Virus genome (UHGV): UHGV-1607510
Origin: a virus
DNA length: 19,146 nt
Reading direction: 5' to 3' (one strand)
The first letter of the stretch is position 1. Every line of letters begins with the position of its first letter. Of this stretch, positions 5,470 to 11,039 are shown in pieces. The translations under genes and the position numbers were made by a program. The notes beneath the pieces are model-generated. The model searched no databases. It was not told the DNA's origin and worked only from the letters and a program-made list of their open reading frames with translations.

Positions 5470-6846
5470 TCATACGTCAGCCCCTTGTGCATATCGTCTG
5501 CCACGCGCAGCAGGTGCATTTGATGCTGTGCAAATCTGTCTGGCTTCATCCTGGTCACATGCAACAAAGTGTCCGTTACAGAACCGCTGGTAAACCGTAC
5601 CAAGCGAGCCAAAACGGTTTTTCGTCACAATGATTTCAGCAAATGGCGCGGCGCTACTGTTCTCGTCATATACCGCTTCCCGATAGAGCATGATGATTGA
5701 GTCTGCGTCCTGTTCAATGCTTCCTGAATCACGCAAATCTGCGTTTGTCGGGCGTTTGTTTGGTCGCTTCTCAACATCGCGCGAAAGCTGACTCAGGGAG
5801 ATAACGGGCGTTTTCAGGTCTTTCGCCATCGCCTTCAGGCTTCCGGAGATGTGAGCAATTGCGAGGTCGTTGCGGTCTGCTTTCGGCTTCTCAATCAGAC
5901 CAAGATAATCCACCATGATGAGTGACAGGTTTGGATTTTCCTGTTTGTGCCGTTCTGCGATTGAGCGTATTTCTTCGACCGATAACCGCGAGGCATCGAC
6001 TACCCATACATCCAAATCTGCAAGCTGACTCATGCCGTTAGCAACGCGCGCCCAGCCTTCGTCATCCATCGATGCAGGATTTCGCAGCACGCTAACCGAC
6101 ATCCTCCCGGCGTTGGCAATGCTTCGCTCTGCAATCTGCAATGCGCTCATTTCCATCGAGAAAATCAACACTCCGCGCCGGACGTCAGAACCAGGAATAA
6201 CGCGGCTTGCAACGCCTTCGGCAATCTTCAGCGCCAGCTCGGTTTTCCCCATACCAGGACGAGCAGCGATTATCACCAGGTCTTCTGCGTTCATCCCTCC
6301 GGTGATGGCGTCAAGTTCTTCGATTCCGGTCTTCATGGTATCTGACTCTTCTCCGTTCCTCAGACGCCTGTCAAGCGTGTCAGTGTAGTCAGTGATGATT
6401 TCCCCTAACCGTACAGGTTTAACCTCGTCACGGGGCTTTCTGATGGCTGAGAGACGCTTTACAAGCTCGTCCATCGCCTGACTCGATGTATCGATGGTTC
6501 CGCTCTGAATTGGTTCACGCATTTCATCCATGATTTCCAGCACCAGACGGCGGTGATAGTTATCCGCGACCATTCCGGCGTATCCCTTCAGGTTTGCGGC
6601 ACTCGGGCAGTTCTTACTGGTCATCAGGATTGACGTGAAATGCTCCTCTCCGCACGCCTCGGCAACCATCAGCGCGTCGATTAGGTTTCTGTTTCTCGCC
6701 TGCTTGCGGATAACCTCGAAGGCTTTCCGGTAGAGCGGAATTGAAAACGCTTCCGGCTCCAGCGTTGCCAGAACGTCGCTGGCGGTTGGTGTTAATCCAC
6801 CAATCAGCAGGCCACCGATAACGCTCGCTTCGATATCCTGTCTCAT
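5470..6846 (-). CDS. Replicative DNA helicase, DnaB family (P22 gene 12-like)
   Basis: 458-aa ORF with Walker A ARPGMGKT, Walker B-like LIMVDYLGL and a DnaB-like N-terminal domain. ATGA overlap with the O-like gene stop. Confidence 0.9.
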
Positions 6847-7664
6847 GCAATCCCCCTGTCTGCAAACTTCCCTTCCCGAACTCCCGTTAACGAATCTTCT
6901 CTCAGCAGGTAATCAAAATCGGCCGTCCAGCCCGTGTCGTTGTCTCCGAAGTAAAACGGCTTGGCCTGATGCACAAACGCCCTGACATACGCTCTGAAAC
7001 CGTCCACGTTTGGCGTTTTCAGTTGCGGGATGATTTTCTTCAGGCGGCGTTTGCGTTTCTCGTTGACCGCAACAGCATGTGGAAGTCTGTCACCGACTTC
7101 GGTGTTGTAGGCGTTCAGGAAGGATTCGTAGTCGATTCGTTCTGCCTTGCGACGTTCAGGTTTAACCTGCCCATCGCCGCCCCCGTTAGGGGGTAAGGGG
7201 GTATTTGTATTTATTGTCTTTTGTATATTGTCTTTTGTGTTTAGCTGACTTGGCTTATACCCATTAGCCGACTCGGCTAATGTTTTATTAGCTGTTTTAG
7301 CTAATGTTAAGCTGTCCTGGCTAATCCACTGAGAAACCACCTTGTTCACTCCGATTTTCACGCCATCAGCAATGAGGAATTTACGCTCGATAAGCTGGCG
7401 CTTGGCAGCGCAAACATGAGTGTGATGAATACCTGTCATGGCTGCTATCTGCGTGTTTGTGAGTCGATCCATCGGCTTATTGAATCCGTATGTCTTGCGC
7501 ATGATAGCGAGCATCACCTTCAGCTGCCGGACGGTTAAATCAGCCATCAGCAGACTGTCGGTAATCTCGTTAGCAACGCGCATGAAACCATCTTCGGTAT
7601 CTGCCACGCGATGCTCCACGACCTCCAGTTGAGGCCTGTAATCAGCTAACTTAACGACGCCCAT
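6843..7664 (-). CDS. Replication initiator, lambda O-like
   Basis: 273-aa ORF whose N-terminal domain ([32 protein letters not shown]) resembles the lambda O N-terminus (LTKRQFKVLLAILRKTYGWNKPMDRITDSQL). Iterons and an AT-rich tract are embedded mid-gene. Confidence 0.85.
7199..7240. other. AT-rich DNA-unwinding element of the replication origin
   Basis: gggtatttgtatttattgtcttttgtatattgtcttttgtgt lies immediately downstream (in gene direction) of the iterons, the same order as in ori-lambda. Confidence 0.5.
7241..7324. repeat. Origin iterons: four about 17-bp palindromic repeats TTAGC-N7-GCTAA inside the O-like gene
   Basis: Repeats at 7241-7257 (ttagctgacttggctta), 7264-7280 (ttagccgactcggctaa, perfect palindrome), 7288-7304 (ttagctgttttagctaa) and 7308-7324 (taagctgtcctggctaa), spaced about 20-24 bp apart. 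Confidence 0.7.
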
Positions 7665-7812
7665 GTTTCACTCCTGCTTTGGCTAGTCTGTAAACACCAA
7701 CAAGGCGCTCTGCGAACGCCCTGTTATTTGCTGCGGCTACCACTAATCCCTCAGGTGAATCAGGGTGTCGAATCTCTTCTTTTTCCTGGTATTTCTTACG
7801 ACGTTTTGTCAT
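7651..7812 (-). CDS. Hypothetical small basic protein (53 aa) between cII and the O-like gene
   Basis: ATG 7812..7810 preceded by AGGAG with a 5-nt spacer. Product [53 protein letters not shown]. Its 3' end overlaps the O-like start by 14 nt. Confidence 0.4.
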   Translation of the reverse strand: MTKRRKKYQEKEEIRHPDSPEGLVVAAANNRAFAERLVGVYRLAKAGVKHGRR

Positions 7813-7890
7813 AATTACTCCTGTGGATTGATCCAGTCTTTCTACATCAGGCCTCAAAACTGTTGCAGCAGTCTTGAGGCTTTTCTTTTG
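7810..7890 (+). ncRNA. oop-like antisense RNA overlapping the cII 3' end (promoter tentative)
   Basis: Plus-strand intrinsic terminator GCCTCAA-(16-nt loop with internal CTG/CAG pairing)-TTGAGGC followed by TTTTCTTTTG at 7851-7889, antisense to the last codons of cII. A candidate -10 CATAAT at 7810-7815 would give a 65-75 nt transcript, comparable to the 77-nt lambda OOP RNA. Confidence 0.5.
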
Positions 7891-8125
7891 TCAGCACCAT
7901 GGCTACTTTCTTTGCCAGCTCCGCTAATTCCTCGTCTTCAACACCCCACTCCAGCACAGCCAGAAGCATGGCCATCTTTGGGATAAAACTGTCTTTCCAT
8001 CGCGAAATTTGCGATTCATTAATCCCTAACGCGTCGGCAACCTTTCGCTGACCACGTACAGCAATTCGATTTAGGATGTTGCTTGTAATTGCATTCGCTT
8101 TCTTGCGAGTACTTGTAAGTTGCAT
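7847..8125 (-). CDS. cII: CII-like transcriptional activator
   Basis: 92-aa product MQLTSTRKKANAITSNILNRIAVRGQRKVADALGINESQISRWKDSFIPKMAMLLAVLEWGVEDEELAELAKKVA... from ATG 8125 (AAGGAAAT RBS upstream). The central region matches lambda CII (KSQISRWKRDWIPKFSMLLAVLEWGV). The track ORF is longer and runs through nutR. Confidence 0.8.
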   Translation of the reverse strand: MQLTSTRKKANAITSNILNRIAVRGQRKVADALGINESQISRWKDSFIPKMAMLLAVLEWGVEDEELAELAKKVAMVLTKEKPQDCCNSFEA

Positions 8126-8135
8126 ATGTAAGTAT
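8103..8135 (+). promoter_or_regulatory. pRE-like CII-activated promoter
   Basis: Plus-strand TTGCgagtacTTGT (TTGC-N6-TTGT) lies in cII codons 3-8, followed 12 nt later by TAAGTAT. The spacing and -10 match lambda pRE (TTGCGTTTGTTTGC then CATATGTAAGTAT) as recalled. Confidence 0.5.
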
Positions 8136-8184
8136 TTCCTTAACAAATAAGAAGTTATGCGCATCAAATTATGCGCGTTGTATT

Positions 8185-8227
8185 CCCGCATTTCGGCGGG
8201 AATGAGGACCATGACTGTTAAAGAGCG
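8185..8227 (-). promoter_or_regulatory. nutR site (boxA CGCTCTTTAACA plus boxB hairpin CCCGC-CGAAAT-GCGGG)
   Basis: Minus-strand sequence between the cro stop and cII start: CGCTCTTTAACA-gtcatggtcctcatt-CCCGCCGAAATGCGGG. The boxB is identical to the one upstream of N. Confidence 0.65.
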
Positions 8228-8233
8228 GTGTTA

Positions 8234-8428
8234 CTATTTGTTTTTCTTGTTGCTTGGGAAAGGACGAACTTCCTCTCCAATCACACTGCCATCAGGCTTT
8301 ACCGTAACCATGATGTTACGGCCTGCCAGAATGGCCTTGCTGATAGCGCACTGGATTACACCAAAGTCACTGGCTGCTTTAGCCTGTCCATGGATTTTGG
8401 CGTAATCGGCAAGTGTCATTCGAATCAT
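8234..8428 (-). CDS. cro: Cro repressor (lambda-Cro fold)
   Basis: 64-aa product [64 protein letters not shown] from ATG 8428 (GGAGAG with a 5-nt spacer). Aligns with lambda Cro ([59 protein letters not shown]). Confidence 0.8.
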
Positions 8429-8457
8429 ATGCACTCTCCGTTATTAACCATGAACAA

Positions 8458-8499
8458 AGAATACTACAGGTATTCAAAGCAATCAATACTCAGGGTATT
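8458..8499 (-). promoter_or_regulatory. PR promoter with operators OR1 and OR2
   Basis: Minus-strand -35 TTGATT (8486..8481), 17-bp spacer, -10 TATTCT (8463..8458). OR1 AATACTACAGGTATT at 8460-8474 overlaps the -10; OR2 AATACTCAGGGTATT at 8485-8499 overlaps the -35. Centre-to-centre spacing is 25 bp. Confidence 0.6.
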
Positions 8500-8534
8500 T
8501 TTAGTTTAAGTACCTTAGCTATTAGAATTAAGCT
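8500..8534 (+). promoter_or_regulatory. PRM-like promoter for a leaderless cI mRNA, with possible OR3
   Basis: -10-like TAGAAT at 8523-8528, 7 nt before the cI ATG, with no Shine-Dalgarno. A degenerate operator-like AGTACCTTAGCTATT lies at 8509-8523. This is the lambda PRM arrangement. Confidence 0.45.
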
Positions 8535-9251
8535 ATGGAAAATAAAAAATCACTGACGACAGAACAGCTGGAAGACGCTAAGCGGCTTAAGGCTTTGTAT
8601 GAGTCAAAAAAGAAAGAATTGGGAATAACCCAATACTCAATCGCTGATGAACTGGGTATCACCCAAGGAGCGGTAGGGCATTATCTTAATGGCAGAAATG
8701 CGCTAAACGTTGAGGTTGCATCTGGTTTTGCACGATTGTTGCAAGTCTCAATTGCTGATTTTAGCCAGTCAATTGCTGCCAAGGTTGCAGAACAGGCAGA
8801 AAGCCTTAAGAGCGATGCCAACGTAAGGTATGCAGGGGAATACAGAGCAGGAAAGAGGTATCCGGTGTTAAGCAGTATCCAGGCTGGCTCGTGGTGTGAA
8901 GCATGCGAACCATACACCATTAAAGACATAGATGTTTGGCTTGAGTCTGACGCGCATATTCAAGGTAATGCGTTCTGGCTTAAAGTGGAAGGTGATTCAA
9001 TGACGGCACCGGTTGGGTTAAGCATTCCAGAGGGAACATTCGTTCTTTTCGATACCGGAAGGGAGGCAATCAACGGCAGCTTGGTCATAGCAAAACTTTC
9101 TGACTCTAACGAAGCAACATTCAAGAAGCTGATAATCGACGGCGGAAATAAATACCTCAAGGGACTTAATCCTGCATGGCCTCTCGTGCCAATCAATGGA
9201 AACTGCAAGATTATAGGCGTTGCAATTGAGACAAAACTCAGACTGGTTTGA
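8535..9251 (+). CDS. cI: CI prophage repressor (HTH plus S24 LexA-like autopeptidase domain)
   Basis: 238-aa ORF with HTH (ITQYSIADELGITQGAVGHYLNG), Ala-Gly cleavage site (SIQAGSW), catalytic Ser (VEGDSMTAPVG) and Lys (ATFKKLI). Collinear with lambda CI (TQEQLEDARRLKAIYEKKK...). Confidence 0.9.
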   Translation: MENKKSLTTEQLEDAKRLKALYESKKKELGITQYSIADELGITQGAVGHYLNGRNALNVEVASGFARLLQVSIADFSQSIAAKVAEQAESLKSDANVRYAGEYRAGKRYPVLSSIQAGSWCEACEPYTIKDIDVWLESDAHIQGNAFWLKVEGDSMTAPVGLSIPEGTFVLFDTGREAINGSLVIAKLSDSNEATFKKLIIDGGNKYLKGLNPAWPLVPINGNCKIIGVAIETKLRLV

Positions 9252-9268
9252 TCACGCAAGGGGCGAAT

Positions 9269-9637
9269 ATGGTTGGAACCGCTATAGCAAGCTTTTTAGG
9301 GATGTTGGCAATATCGACAATTTACTGCTTAGCGCATGCTTTTATTGCGAAATCTCTATCAGAAAAAATAAGCCAGGCTTGGGCGCATAGATCAGCTCGT
9401 TTCATGATTCTGGTGATCATAGCAATACAAGGGATATCTGCATTTATCCTCTATGGATCAAGCTTATACCTATTGTATCAAGGCGCGACATTTACGCCTT
9501 ACACCAGTGATTACGGAACCCTATACGATGGTAGTGAAGACATCTCTATGGCTTGGATCGTCTTTGGTTTATCTATGGCCGTGTCTGTTGTAGCAGACAT
9601 CATTAAGGTAATTCTCGTCTTAACCTTCGCTGACTAA
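9269..9637 (+). CDS. Small integral membrane protein (122 aa, 3 predicted TM helices) downstream of cI
   Basis: ATG 9269 with AAGGGG RBS (5-nt spacer), 17 nt after the cI stop. Hydrophobic segments VGTAIASFLGMLAISTIYCLAHAFIA, FMILVIIAIQGISAFILYGSSLYLLY and AWIVFGLSMAVSVVADIIKVILVLTF. The track start (TTG at 9248) overlaps the cI stop and is less likely. Confidence 0.6.
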   Translation: MVGTAIASFLGMLAISTIYCLAHAFIAKSLSEKISQAWAHRSARFMILVIIAIQGISAFILYGSSLYLLYQGATFTPYTSDYGTLYDGSEDISMAWIVFGLSMAVSVVADIIKVILVLTFAD

Positions 9638-9769
9638 CCCATAATCCCGGAAGCAATAGCTATCGGGATCCACTTCACATATCCCGCATAAAAAGCACTG
9701 AACAAGCAGACACCGAAAAAAATAAATATCCTTTGTATTCATTTGTTTATCATTATTTCATCAAAAATA

Positions 9770-9811
9770 AATACCTTGGGTATTTACACAATAAAATACC
9801 TACAGTATTCT
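9770..9811 (+). promoter_or_regulatory. PL promoter with operators OL2 and OL1
   Basis: -35 TTTACA (9783-9788), 17-bp spacer, -10 TATTCT (9806-9811). OL2 AATACCTTGGGTATT at 9770-9784 and OL1 AATACCTACAGTATT at 9795-9809, spaced 25 bp as at OR. A degenerate third site AATATCCTTTGTATT lies at 9725-9739. Confidence 0.6.
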
Positions 9812-9857
9812 TTAGCCATCAGCAGGACGCTGGTAGCCAAACGGAACAGATTGGCAG

Positions 9858-9897
9858 GCTCTTTAACATTGATGGGATTGTCCCGCCGAAATGCGGG
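9858..9897 (+). promoter_or_regulatory. nutL site (boxA GCTCTTTAACA plus boxB CCCGCCGAAATGCGGG)
   Basis: boxA at 9858-9868 matches the rrn/lambdoid boxA consensus. boxB at 9882-9897 is identical to the nutR boxB. Located between PL and the N-like gene. Confidence 0.7.
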
Positions 9898-10005
9898 AAC
9901 CAAAGAGTAGTTGGCTTTGGGGTGACGTGAAGTGCAGATGCACGACGGCAACCGGAAGATAAGCACCCGGCGCGTCACCGCCAAAGTCAATCATCGGAGG
10001 TCAAC

Positions 10006-10278
10006 ATGACAGTAGTCATTACATATCTGGCTGACGATAACGCCAGAAATCGCCGCAGAGCACGCAGACAGGCTCAACGTGAACAGGCAATGCAAGAACA
10101 GCGACTGGCGCGAAAGATTGCGCTAAAGCTCTCTGGTTGCGTCAGAGCAGATAAAGCAGCATCACTCGGAAGCCTTCGCTGCAAGAAGGCAGATGAATGC
10201 AGTGGAAGTATTTGCCTGCCAAACGTAGCCATTTACGCGGCAGGCTACCGGAAATCAAAACAACTGACAGCCAGGTAA
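10006..10278 (+). CDS. N-like transcription antiterminator (P22 gene 24 type)
   Basis: 90-aa ORF with GGAGG RBS and an N-terminal arginine-rich motif (NARNRRRARRQAQREQ). First gene after PL-nutL. The C-terminus VAIYAAGYRKSKQLTAR resembles P22 gp24 as recalled. Confidence 0.75.
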   Translation: MTVVITYLADDNARNRRRARRQAQREQAMQEQRLARKIALKLSGCVRADKAASLGSLRCKKADECSGSICLPNVAIYAAGYRKSKQLTAR

Positions 10279-10281
10279 GTG

Positions 10282-10506
10282 ATGAATCAGACATACATTC
10301 CATCATGCTTGAGAAATCTGCCAAAGCAGAAAGCAAAGCCCCGCAAGCAAGCCATAAAGGACGCTAAGGCAGAGGTTATTGATCAAGCAATACAATTGCT
10401 CAGGGAGGAGTTAAGAAGTGGCAAGCTCGAAGGAATGATGATGCCCTATCAGCGCGGATATCTATCGGCGATTAGTAAGTTGGAAGTATTGAAGAGTGAA
10501 TTATGA
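10282..10506 (+). CDS. Hypothetical small helical, Lys-rich protein (74 aa)
   Basis: ATG 10282 directly after the N stop. Product MNQTYIPSCLRNLPKQKAKPRKQAIKDAKAEVIDQAIQLLREELRSGKLEGMMMPYQRGYLSAISKLEVLKSEL. Stop overlaps the next start (ATGA). Confidence 0.5.
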   Translation: MNQTYIPSCLRNLPKQKAKPRKQAIKDAKAEVIDQAIQLLREELRSGKLEGMMMPYQRGYLSAISKLEVLKSEL

Positions 10507-11039
10507 ACTATCTGGAATTTCCGGATGGTTCATTGTTTTGGCAGCAAACCACTTATTTGAGGCGAGATATGAGAAAATCATGGAACGTACCTTTTCCTGA
10601 ATCAGAAACTGAACATGATGGAATGCCTGTTTTCTGGAGATTCCAGGCGACAGTTGAAGAAGATGGAATCAAAATATTCGCACTTCAATATATAGCTTTT
10701 CATCAGACAGAGCATTATGCATGGTTGGTTCCTGCGCATTGGATTGTTGATTTTAAACCAGCACCAAATCAGTGGTTACGGGAATGGAAACAAAGGATAA
10801 ATAGATATGCAATTAAGAAAGTAGCAAAAAATGCAGAAAGATCTTTTGCATTCCCAACGAAGAAACTTGCCATTGAGAGCTTATTGCGCCGGAAGAAATA
10901 CCATTTAATAAGAATCAAACAAGATTTGGCTGTTGTATCAACTCTTGTTGATGGGATGAAGAATATTGATACATCAACACCAGATATTGAATATAATTTT
11001 GGACACAACCAAGAAACAGAAAATTGGGTATTCTACTAG
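10503..11039 (+). CDS. Hypothetical protein (178 aa), AT-rich gene
   Basis: ORF MNYLEFPDGSLFWQQTTYLRRDMRKSWNVPFPESETEHDGMPVFWRFQATVEEDGIKIFALQYIAFHQTEHYAWLVPAHW... The 3' half is visibly more AT-rich than the neighbouring phage genes. Followed by an intrinsic terminator. Confidence 0.6.
   Translation: MNYLEFPDGSLFWQQTTYLRRDMRKSWNVPFPESETEHDGMPVFWRFQATVEEDGIKIFALQYIAFHQTEHYAWLVPAHWIVDFKPAPNQWLREWKQRINRYAIKKVAKNAERSFAFPTKKLAIESLLRRKKYHLIRIKQDLAVVSTLVDGMKNIDTSTPDIEYNFGHNQETENWVFY

Follow-up and report, generated by a model that had tools for sequence, protein, structure and literature searches.

The window analysed here, that is, the whole 19,146-nucleotide (nt) DNA stretch of the virus genome UHGV-1607510, contains two sites formed by a boxA, a spacer and a boxB inverted repeat. 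It is highly probable that they are the nutR and nutL (N-utilization rightward and leftward) sites of an HK620-type lambdoid phage or prophage, in which boxB and the arginine-rich motif (ARM) of the antitermination protein N constitute a matched specificity pair distinct from those of lambda, P22 and phage 21. The pair of sites is itself already known, and in that sense it is an ordinary finding: identical sites were annotated in HK620 in 2001 and occur in its relatives. The GenBank record of HK620 (AF335538) marks "nutR; putative N-utilization rightward" and "nutL; putative N-utilization leftward" at the homologous positions, and it also annotates pL, pR, OL1-3, OR1-3, tIMM and tR1. The window, HK620 and mEpX2 agree in every base of boxA, spacer and boxB at both sites, and the surrounding 2.6 kb show 97.5-98.4% identity with several coliphages, among them HK620, HK140, HK630 and mEpX2. 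As regards annotation, this confirms the presence in the window of a standard HK620-type lambdoid early-regulation module.

An earlier note on this DNA, made from the letters alone, had described two identical boxB copies, each preceded by a boxA similar to that of the rrn operons, and had read them as a matched nutL and nutR; the scan and alignment of the window bear out these statements. The 16-mer CCCGCCGAAATGCGGG is found in two exact copies, at 8185-8200 on the minus strand (nutR) and at 9882-9897 on the plus strand (nutL), and when both sites are aligned the identity extends from 16/16 to 19/19 nt (TCCCGCCGAAATGCGGGAA). The window has no third site at two or fewer mismatches, and 0/200 dinucleotide-preserving shuffles gave any match. 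The boxA sequence GCTCTTTAACA is also exact at both sites (8216-8226, minus strand; 9858-9868, plus strand), and the base on its 5' side is C at nutR, where the complete rrn-type consensus element reads CGCTCTTTAACA (8227-8216) and is the same as that of the annotated HK620 nutR, and G at nutL, where it reads GGCTCTTTAACA (9857-9868, plus strand). The similarity to the rrn operons is close: the window boxA, GCUCUUUAACA, matches the rrnG leader at 11/11 positions and GCTCTTTAACA equals the core of the rrn boxA of E. coli; the boxA-spacer of rrnG reads ugcucuuuaacaauuua and the boxA of lambda reads cgcucuua (PMC2724277, Table 1). The general consensus for the boxA of nut sites is CGCUCUU(U)A. 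In the sense of the transcript, boxA lies upstream of the 16-nt boxB at a distance of 15 nt at nutR and 13 nt at nutL. The spacers, GTCATGGTCCTCATT (8201-8215, minus strand) and TTGATGGGATTG (9869-9880, plus strand), have in common a T-ATGG motif, and by extrapolation from lambda they may take part in the contact with NusA (PMC2724277). A boxC-like element, GGCTTTGGGGTG, is located at 9913-9924 (plus strand), 15 nt after the nutL boxB.

Folding of the RNA of both sites, which had been proposed as a check, yields the hairpins. The boxB RNA in its 19-20-nt form is UCCCGCCGAAAUGCGGGAA, and the isolated 20-mers adopt a 6-bp stem with a CGAAAU loop, with energies of -10.7 kcal/mol for nutR and -10.5 kcal/mol for nutL and z values of -3.0 and -3.7, respectively (equally stable shuffles, 1/200 and 0/200). 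The nutR hairpin, located at 8183-8202 (minus strand) around the 16-nt core at 8185-8200, has the stem UUCCCGC/GCGGGAA and the loop CGAAAU, while that of nutL, at 9881-9898 (plus strand) around the core at 9882-9897, has the stem UCCCGC/GCGGGA and the same loop. In a context of 61 nt the predicted stem is of 8 bp at nutR and 6 bp at nutL, and both hairpins are retained in folds of approximately 115 nt; the 61-nt and 118-nt contexts of nutL fold no more stably than shuffled sequences (z -0.9 and -0.5). In the minimum free energy fold of nutL, the CUCUUU of boxA (9859-9864) can pair with an AAAGAG located just 3' of boxB (9902-9907, plus strand), which is substituted in the variants that carry an insert between boxB and N. 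This pairing was dropped as a feature, the nutL contexts being no more stable than shuffles.

The location of the sites, between cro and cII and between PL and N, agrees with the Pfam matches, the promoter scan and the HK620 annotation. Each of the two early operons has one nut site (PL-N and cro-tR1/cII). On one side, nutR lies between the stop of cro at 8234 and the start of cII at 8125, both genes being on the minus strand and annotated in HK620 (cro, 8234-8428, Pfam Cro, E 4e-26; cII, 7847-8125, Pfam Phage_CII, E 2e-44). On the other, nutL lies between a PL-like promoter, TTTACA-17-TATTCT (9783-9811, plus strand), and the start of N at 10006. This promoter coincides with the annotated pL of HK620, is the only promoter-like site called in 7800-10300 and is located 47 nt upstream of the nutL boxA. 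The position of PR (8451-8486, minus strand, ±1 nt) was assigned by homology to the annotated pR of HK620; the consensus promoter scan missed it, and 8/12 matches are visible by eye. With respect to the conventional lambda map that of the window is inverted, with PR leftward and PL rightward.

The gene that follows nutL (10006-10278, plus strand) encodes an N protein of 90 residues that matches the Pfam family PF25694 N_peptide (E 1.1e-15; score 58 bits, cut-off 27.9). The phage thus carries its own N with an N-terminal ARM (NARNRRRARRQAQREQ; in the alignment, ADDNARNRRRARRQAQREQAMQEQR, residues ~9-33, nt 10030-10104, plus strand). The protein is 96-100% identical to the N of JEP4, HK140, HK630, HK620 and phi296 (97.8% in the case of HK140 and HK630, and with differences at 3/90 residues in that of HK620). 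Other phages share only parts of it: residues 1-64 match the N of CUS-3 and IME10 (tblastn and alignment), residues 37-90 match that of HK629 (tblastn), the last 22 residues (69-90) match the 933W-type N at 95%, and gp24 of P22 aligns over residues 47-90 only, with 57% identity. Judged by these matches, N is a three-part mosaic. The description of N as P22-like in the earlier note holds for this C-terminal part and fails for the ARM, which is of a type of its own. In lambda N, the part that corresponds to the C-terminal module contacts RNA polymerase.

According to a hand count on the alignment, the ARM core shares 7/18 positions with lambda N (A13, R16-18, R20-21 and Q27), the numbers for P22 and the phage-21 type being 6 and 5, and the shared residues amount essentially to a scaffold of Ala and Arg; where lambda has Trp18, this N has Ala. 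A search of the PDB sequences with N gave only spurious matches to RNF168 (E at least 0.35), and no chain resembles the ARM. In 933W, the boxB of the annotated nutL (L124, 105-120), GCGCUGACAAAGCGC, is identical to that of P22, and yet the ARM of the 933W N, GNSRSRRRERLKAKALANG, departs from the P22 ARM after the RRxER core.

The association between this ARM and this boxB was evaluated in two sets of loci. The boxB-selected loci are the IMG/VR viral stretches retrieved by the exact boxB 19-mer, at least 120 in all, and the ARM-selected loci are those retrieved by residues 1-62 of N (ARM included), of which 79 were informative because they contain upstream DNA. In the first set, the genes called 3' of the boxB copies are almost all either N genes with the ARM ...DDNARNRRRARRQAQREQAM, whose products begin with M(T/A)VVITYLADDNARNRRRARRQAQREQAM, or cII-type genes; no gene was called downstream of 34/214 copies, and in a few cases an unrelated open reading frame (ORF) comes next. 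All the viral loci with two copies (92/92) have them in divergent orientation, 1168-3006 nt apart. The DNA between them sorts into at least 13 clusters, so that one and the same nut pair brackets many different immunity cassettes. In the second set, the exact boxB is located 124-578 nt upstream of N in 76/79 loci, and the three exceptions are recombinants, two of them with the junction inside boxB.

Two of these exceptions, L197 (~226-242) and L182 (~150-175), have a hybrid or truncated boxB, GCCCTCCGAAATGCGGG and ...GGAATGCCGAAATGCGGG. Immediately upstream in L182 is the 3' end of a further N gene, one whose C-terminus is lambda-like, an arrangement that suggests two tandem N genes. Approximately 40/80 of the related loci (L131-L133, L147 and L155, among others) carry an insert of 200-250 nt between the nutL boxB and the start of N; it begins with ACTGAGTTTAACCAAACAGGAGG... 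and brings the distance between boxB and N to 325-418 nt, as compared with 124 nt in the window.

The most telling test comes from natural chimeras, which show the type of ARM and the type of boxB changing together. The N of HK629 is nearly identical to that of the window from residue 34 onwards and has an N-terminus, MVTIVWKESKGTAKSRYKARRAELIAERR, that is a phage-21-type ARM; its boxBs likewise follow the phage-21 pattern (nutL, UCUCAAC-CUAACC-GUUGAGA; nutR, CACC-UCUAACA-GGUG), and its boxA is unchanged. The N of mEp235 combines the same residues 34-90 with a phage-21-type ARM as well. Conversely, the N of CUS-3 combines residues 1-64 of the window protein with a lambda-like C-terminus, and at both sites the CUS-3 boxB equals that of the window. 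It follows from these chimeras that one specificity unit, inherited independently of the rest of the protein, comprises the first ~33 residues of N together with the two boxBs. HK629, CUS-3 and the phage of the window provide a clean demonstration, by comparison, that boxB specificity is set by the first ~33 residues of N. Along with the position, the orientation and the adjacent N gene, these module swaps support the description of the two sites as a matched pair. The same reasoning has been put forward for phages L and P22, in which the N-terminal module and boxB are identical, the C-terminus is swapped and the proteins are functionally interchangeable (PMC8022706).

The mechanism in which these elements would participate is taken from the lambda paradigm (PMC2724277 and reviews cited there), and binding of N to boxB, dependence on Nus factors and antitermination are expected here by analogy. 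The leftward transcript from PR and the rightward transcript from PL would each carry boxA, spacer and boxB; the N-terminal ARM of the 90-residue N would bind the boxB hairpin (a G+C-rich stem of 6-7 bp with a CGAAAU loop), the host NusB-NusE(S10) would bind the rrn-consensus boxA, and NusA would contact the spacer and the central part of N, whose C-terminal part would contact RNA polymerase. The complex would remain on the polymerase and allow read-through of tR1 into cII-O-P and, in the left operon, read-through of the terminators downstream of N.

The leader that connects nutR with cII has additional structure in the predicted folds. A second hairpin, GCGCAU-AAUUUG-AUGCGC followed by the U-rich AUAACUUCUUAUUUG, is located at 8159-8176 (minus strand), and since related leaders have GCGCAUC...GGUGCGU/C and ACGCAUC...GAUGCGU, with G-C replaced by A-U in L050/L051, its stem is maintained with compensatory changes. 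The HK620 record puts tR1 directly after nutR, in the place of this hairpin, which is probably part of that terminator. Moreover, the nutR boxA (UCUUUAACAG, 8215-8224, minus strand) is predicted to form 10 bp with UUGUUAAGGA (8137-8146, minus strand), which includes the Shine-Dalgarno (SD) sequence of cII. The leader segment UGUUAAGG is involved in this pairing, and both boxB and the second hairpin fall between the two strands of the resulting helix. The fold of the 113-nt leader has a z of -3.8, with 0/200 shuffles as stable and an unpaired probability of ~0.01 for both boxA and SD. Most of the 37 distinct related leaders are predicted to form the helix; a T-to-A variant shortens it and two divergent leaders lack it, and the lambda and HK629 leaders show no boxA-SD pairing in their folds; because boxA is invariant, no compensatory change is possible. 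As a weaker possibility, the pairing could couple the loading of NusB-NusE and N at boxA to the translation of cII. Alternatively, it could be a by-product of the likeness of boxA to the anti-SD sequence.

Several observations weigh against the interpretation of the sites as a functional, matched nut pair. A boxA-SD helix, if present in vivo, would be in competition with the binding of NusB-NusE. A scan of the whole window with Rfam at gathering thresholds gave no family. No published experimental test of this N-boxB pair was found in the literature, and the HK620 record itself uses the word 'putative'. Furthermore, boxB is monomorphic, the 16-mer being identical in the boxB-selected loci and in the ARM-selected loci with the exception of the three recombinants, and this conservation could be due in part to recent common ancestry. 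A scan of viral contigs for CGAAAT loops that have the consensus boxA upstream and another closing base gave 31 loci, none of which has such a hairpin; they were discarded as boxB variants, being chance matches or other nut types. With an invariant boxB there is no compensatory covariation to prove the helix, which consequently rests on thermodynamics, position and analogy.

Among the other explanations, the one that survives best, although we regard it as unlikely, accepts the repeats as real nut boxBs and denies them a separate specificity, in such a way that this N and that of lambda might recognise each other's boxBs. The 7/18 ARM core positions in common with lambda N include the core A-x-x-RRR-x-RR, the GAAA of the loop resembles the GAAAA of lambda, and the boxB requirements of P22 and lambda overlap according to Cocozaki et al. 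(2008), cited in PMC8022706. This notion is opposed by the hairpin itself, a hexaloop with C and U flanks, not a pentaloop on a U-A pair, and a different stem sequence, as well as by the Ala at the position of Trp18. It is also opposed by the mosaic phages, in which this ARM and both boxBs always travel together, as would be expected if mismatched pairs fail.

A second explanation, which appears very improbable, is that the repeats have been kept by recent shared ancestry or hitch-hiking, or are relics, and are no longer N-utilisation sites. It agrees with the lack of sequence variation, and hence of covariation, and with the local near-identity of the related loci, but both 16-nt cores and the boxAs have remained exact despite at least 13 unrelated cassettes and a variable cII and N C-terminus, and sites cut by recombination are rare (3/79, two of them with the junction inside boxB). 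Finally, the possibility that the repeats are DNA sites for a dimeric protein, or intrinsic terminators or attenuators and not RNA hairpins, which their G+C-rich symmetry and the second hairpin with its U-rich tail after nutR might evoke, deserves hardly any credit: neither boxB is followed by a U-run (their tails read AAUACAACG and AACCAAAGAG) and neither was called in the terminator scan, for which reason the terminator reading was rejected, the asymmetric CGAAAT loop keeps a constant sense with respect to transcription and boxA in 92/92 pairs, and the operators of this immunity region are other sequences, annotated elsewhere.

The nut pair interpreted here as that of an HK620-type phage is widely distributed. 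The exact boxB 19-mer is present in at least 120 IMG/VR viral stretches, and the segment from nutL to the ARM is found in 526/5426 complete E. coli genomes (~10%). Local identity is at least 95% across all the relatives; no phage record covers more than 59% of the window, which is a different mosaic overall. The surrounding genes include the cI repressor (8535-9251, plus strand), with a helix-turn-helix and an S24 peptidase domain (Pfam, HK620 annotation), and the replication protein O (6843-7664, minus strand; Pfam). Between cI and PL/OL there is an ORF of 129 residues (9248-9637, plus strand) with hydrophobic stretches and no Pfam match, which corresponds to hkaS of HK620 ('unknown'). As it sits in the slot of lambda rexAB, it may be an exclusion or conversion gene expressed by the prophage. 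Further along, at 10503-10533 (plus strand), a hairpin with a perfect stem of 14 bp followed by UGUUUUGG was called terminator-like by the scan. It is located ~225 nt downstream of N and overlaps the start codon of an ORF of 178 residues (10503-11039); it could serve as the first left-operon terminator or, alternatively, to control translation.

Compared with known systems, the window is closest to HK620, with which it shares the gene order cII-nutR-cro-PR/OR-cI-hkaS-PL/OL-nutL-N; its nut sites show no substantive difference from those of HK620, HK140, HK630, mEpX2, CUS-3 and JEP4. The difference lies downstream of N, where HK620 has hkaQ and the window has another gene. The comparison with P22, phage 21 and HK022 that had been recommended holds for the first two, whose boxBs differ from that of the window. 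HK022 is unsuited to it, because that phage is not known to have an N/nut system of this kind.

The architecture boxA-spacer-boxB(-boxC) and its position with respect to PL/N and cro/cII are shared with lambda, as is the N-terminal location of the ARM, and the same 12-mer GGCTTTGGGGTG follows the nutL boxB of lambda at 16 nt and that of the window at 15 nt. However, the boxA of lambda is CGCUCUUA, without the extra U (PMC2724277), its spacer has 8-9 nt as compared with 13-15 nt, and its boxB has a pentaloop, GCCCU-GAAAA-AGGGC at nutR and GCCCU-GAAGA-AGGGC at nutL, whereas that of the window is (U)CCCGC-CGAAAU-GCGGG(A), a hexaloop, as the earlier note had indicated in stating that the loop is unlike that of lambda. 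The ARMs differ at 11/18 core positions and this N has no equivalent of Trp18. A specificity of the lambda type, defined by a GAAAA/GAAGA pentaloop on GCCCU/AGGGC and by Trp18, was accordingly rejected.

P22 has a boxA of the consensus type (CGCTCTTTAAC), as in the window, and its gp24 shares with this N the C-terminal module LP-VA-YAAG-RKSKQ-TAR. The parts that recognise RNA are others, since the P22 boxB is GCGCU-GACAA-AGCGC and its ARM is GNAKTRRHERRRKLAIERDT, and with the likeness limited to the C-terminal 44 residues a P22-type specificity was also discarded. In the phages of the phage-21 type (HK629, mEp235, PA28; PDB 1NYB), the boxA (GGCTCTTTAACAT) and the central region of N (34-66) are the same as in the window, and in HK629 the whole of residues 34-90 is in common. 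Their boxB has a hexaloop flanked by two pyrimidines, like the C-GAAA-U of the window, but the loops are CUAACC or CUAACA, the stems differ from that of the window and are unequal at nutL and nutR, and the ARM, GTAKSRYKARRAELIAERR, is unlike that of this N. As only the size of the hexaloop and its pyrimidine flanks are shared, a phage-21-type specificity was likewise set aside.

Published nuclear magnetic resonance work describes, for the hexaloop of phage 21 (C-UAAC-C), a GNRA-like fold in which a non-canonical C-C pair closes the loop (PDB 1NYB; PMC12550061), and by analogy the loop of the window could form a GAAA tetraloop proper, with a C-U mismatch as its closing pair. On this basis we propose, tentatively and with somewhat less than even confidence, that the HK620-type pair represents a further mode of N-boxB recognition, orthogonal to those of lambda, P22 and phage 21, in which a GAAA tetraloop closed by C-U within a hexaloop, with no extruded base, would be read by an ARM that does not have the stacking tryptophan. 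It is a common ARM-boxB pair without a solved structure, and it could provide an orthogonal peptide-RNA tether comparable to the lambda-N/boxB system used in RNA biology.

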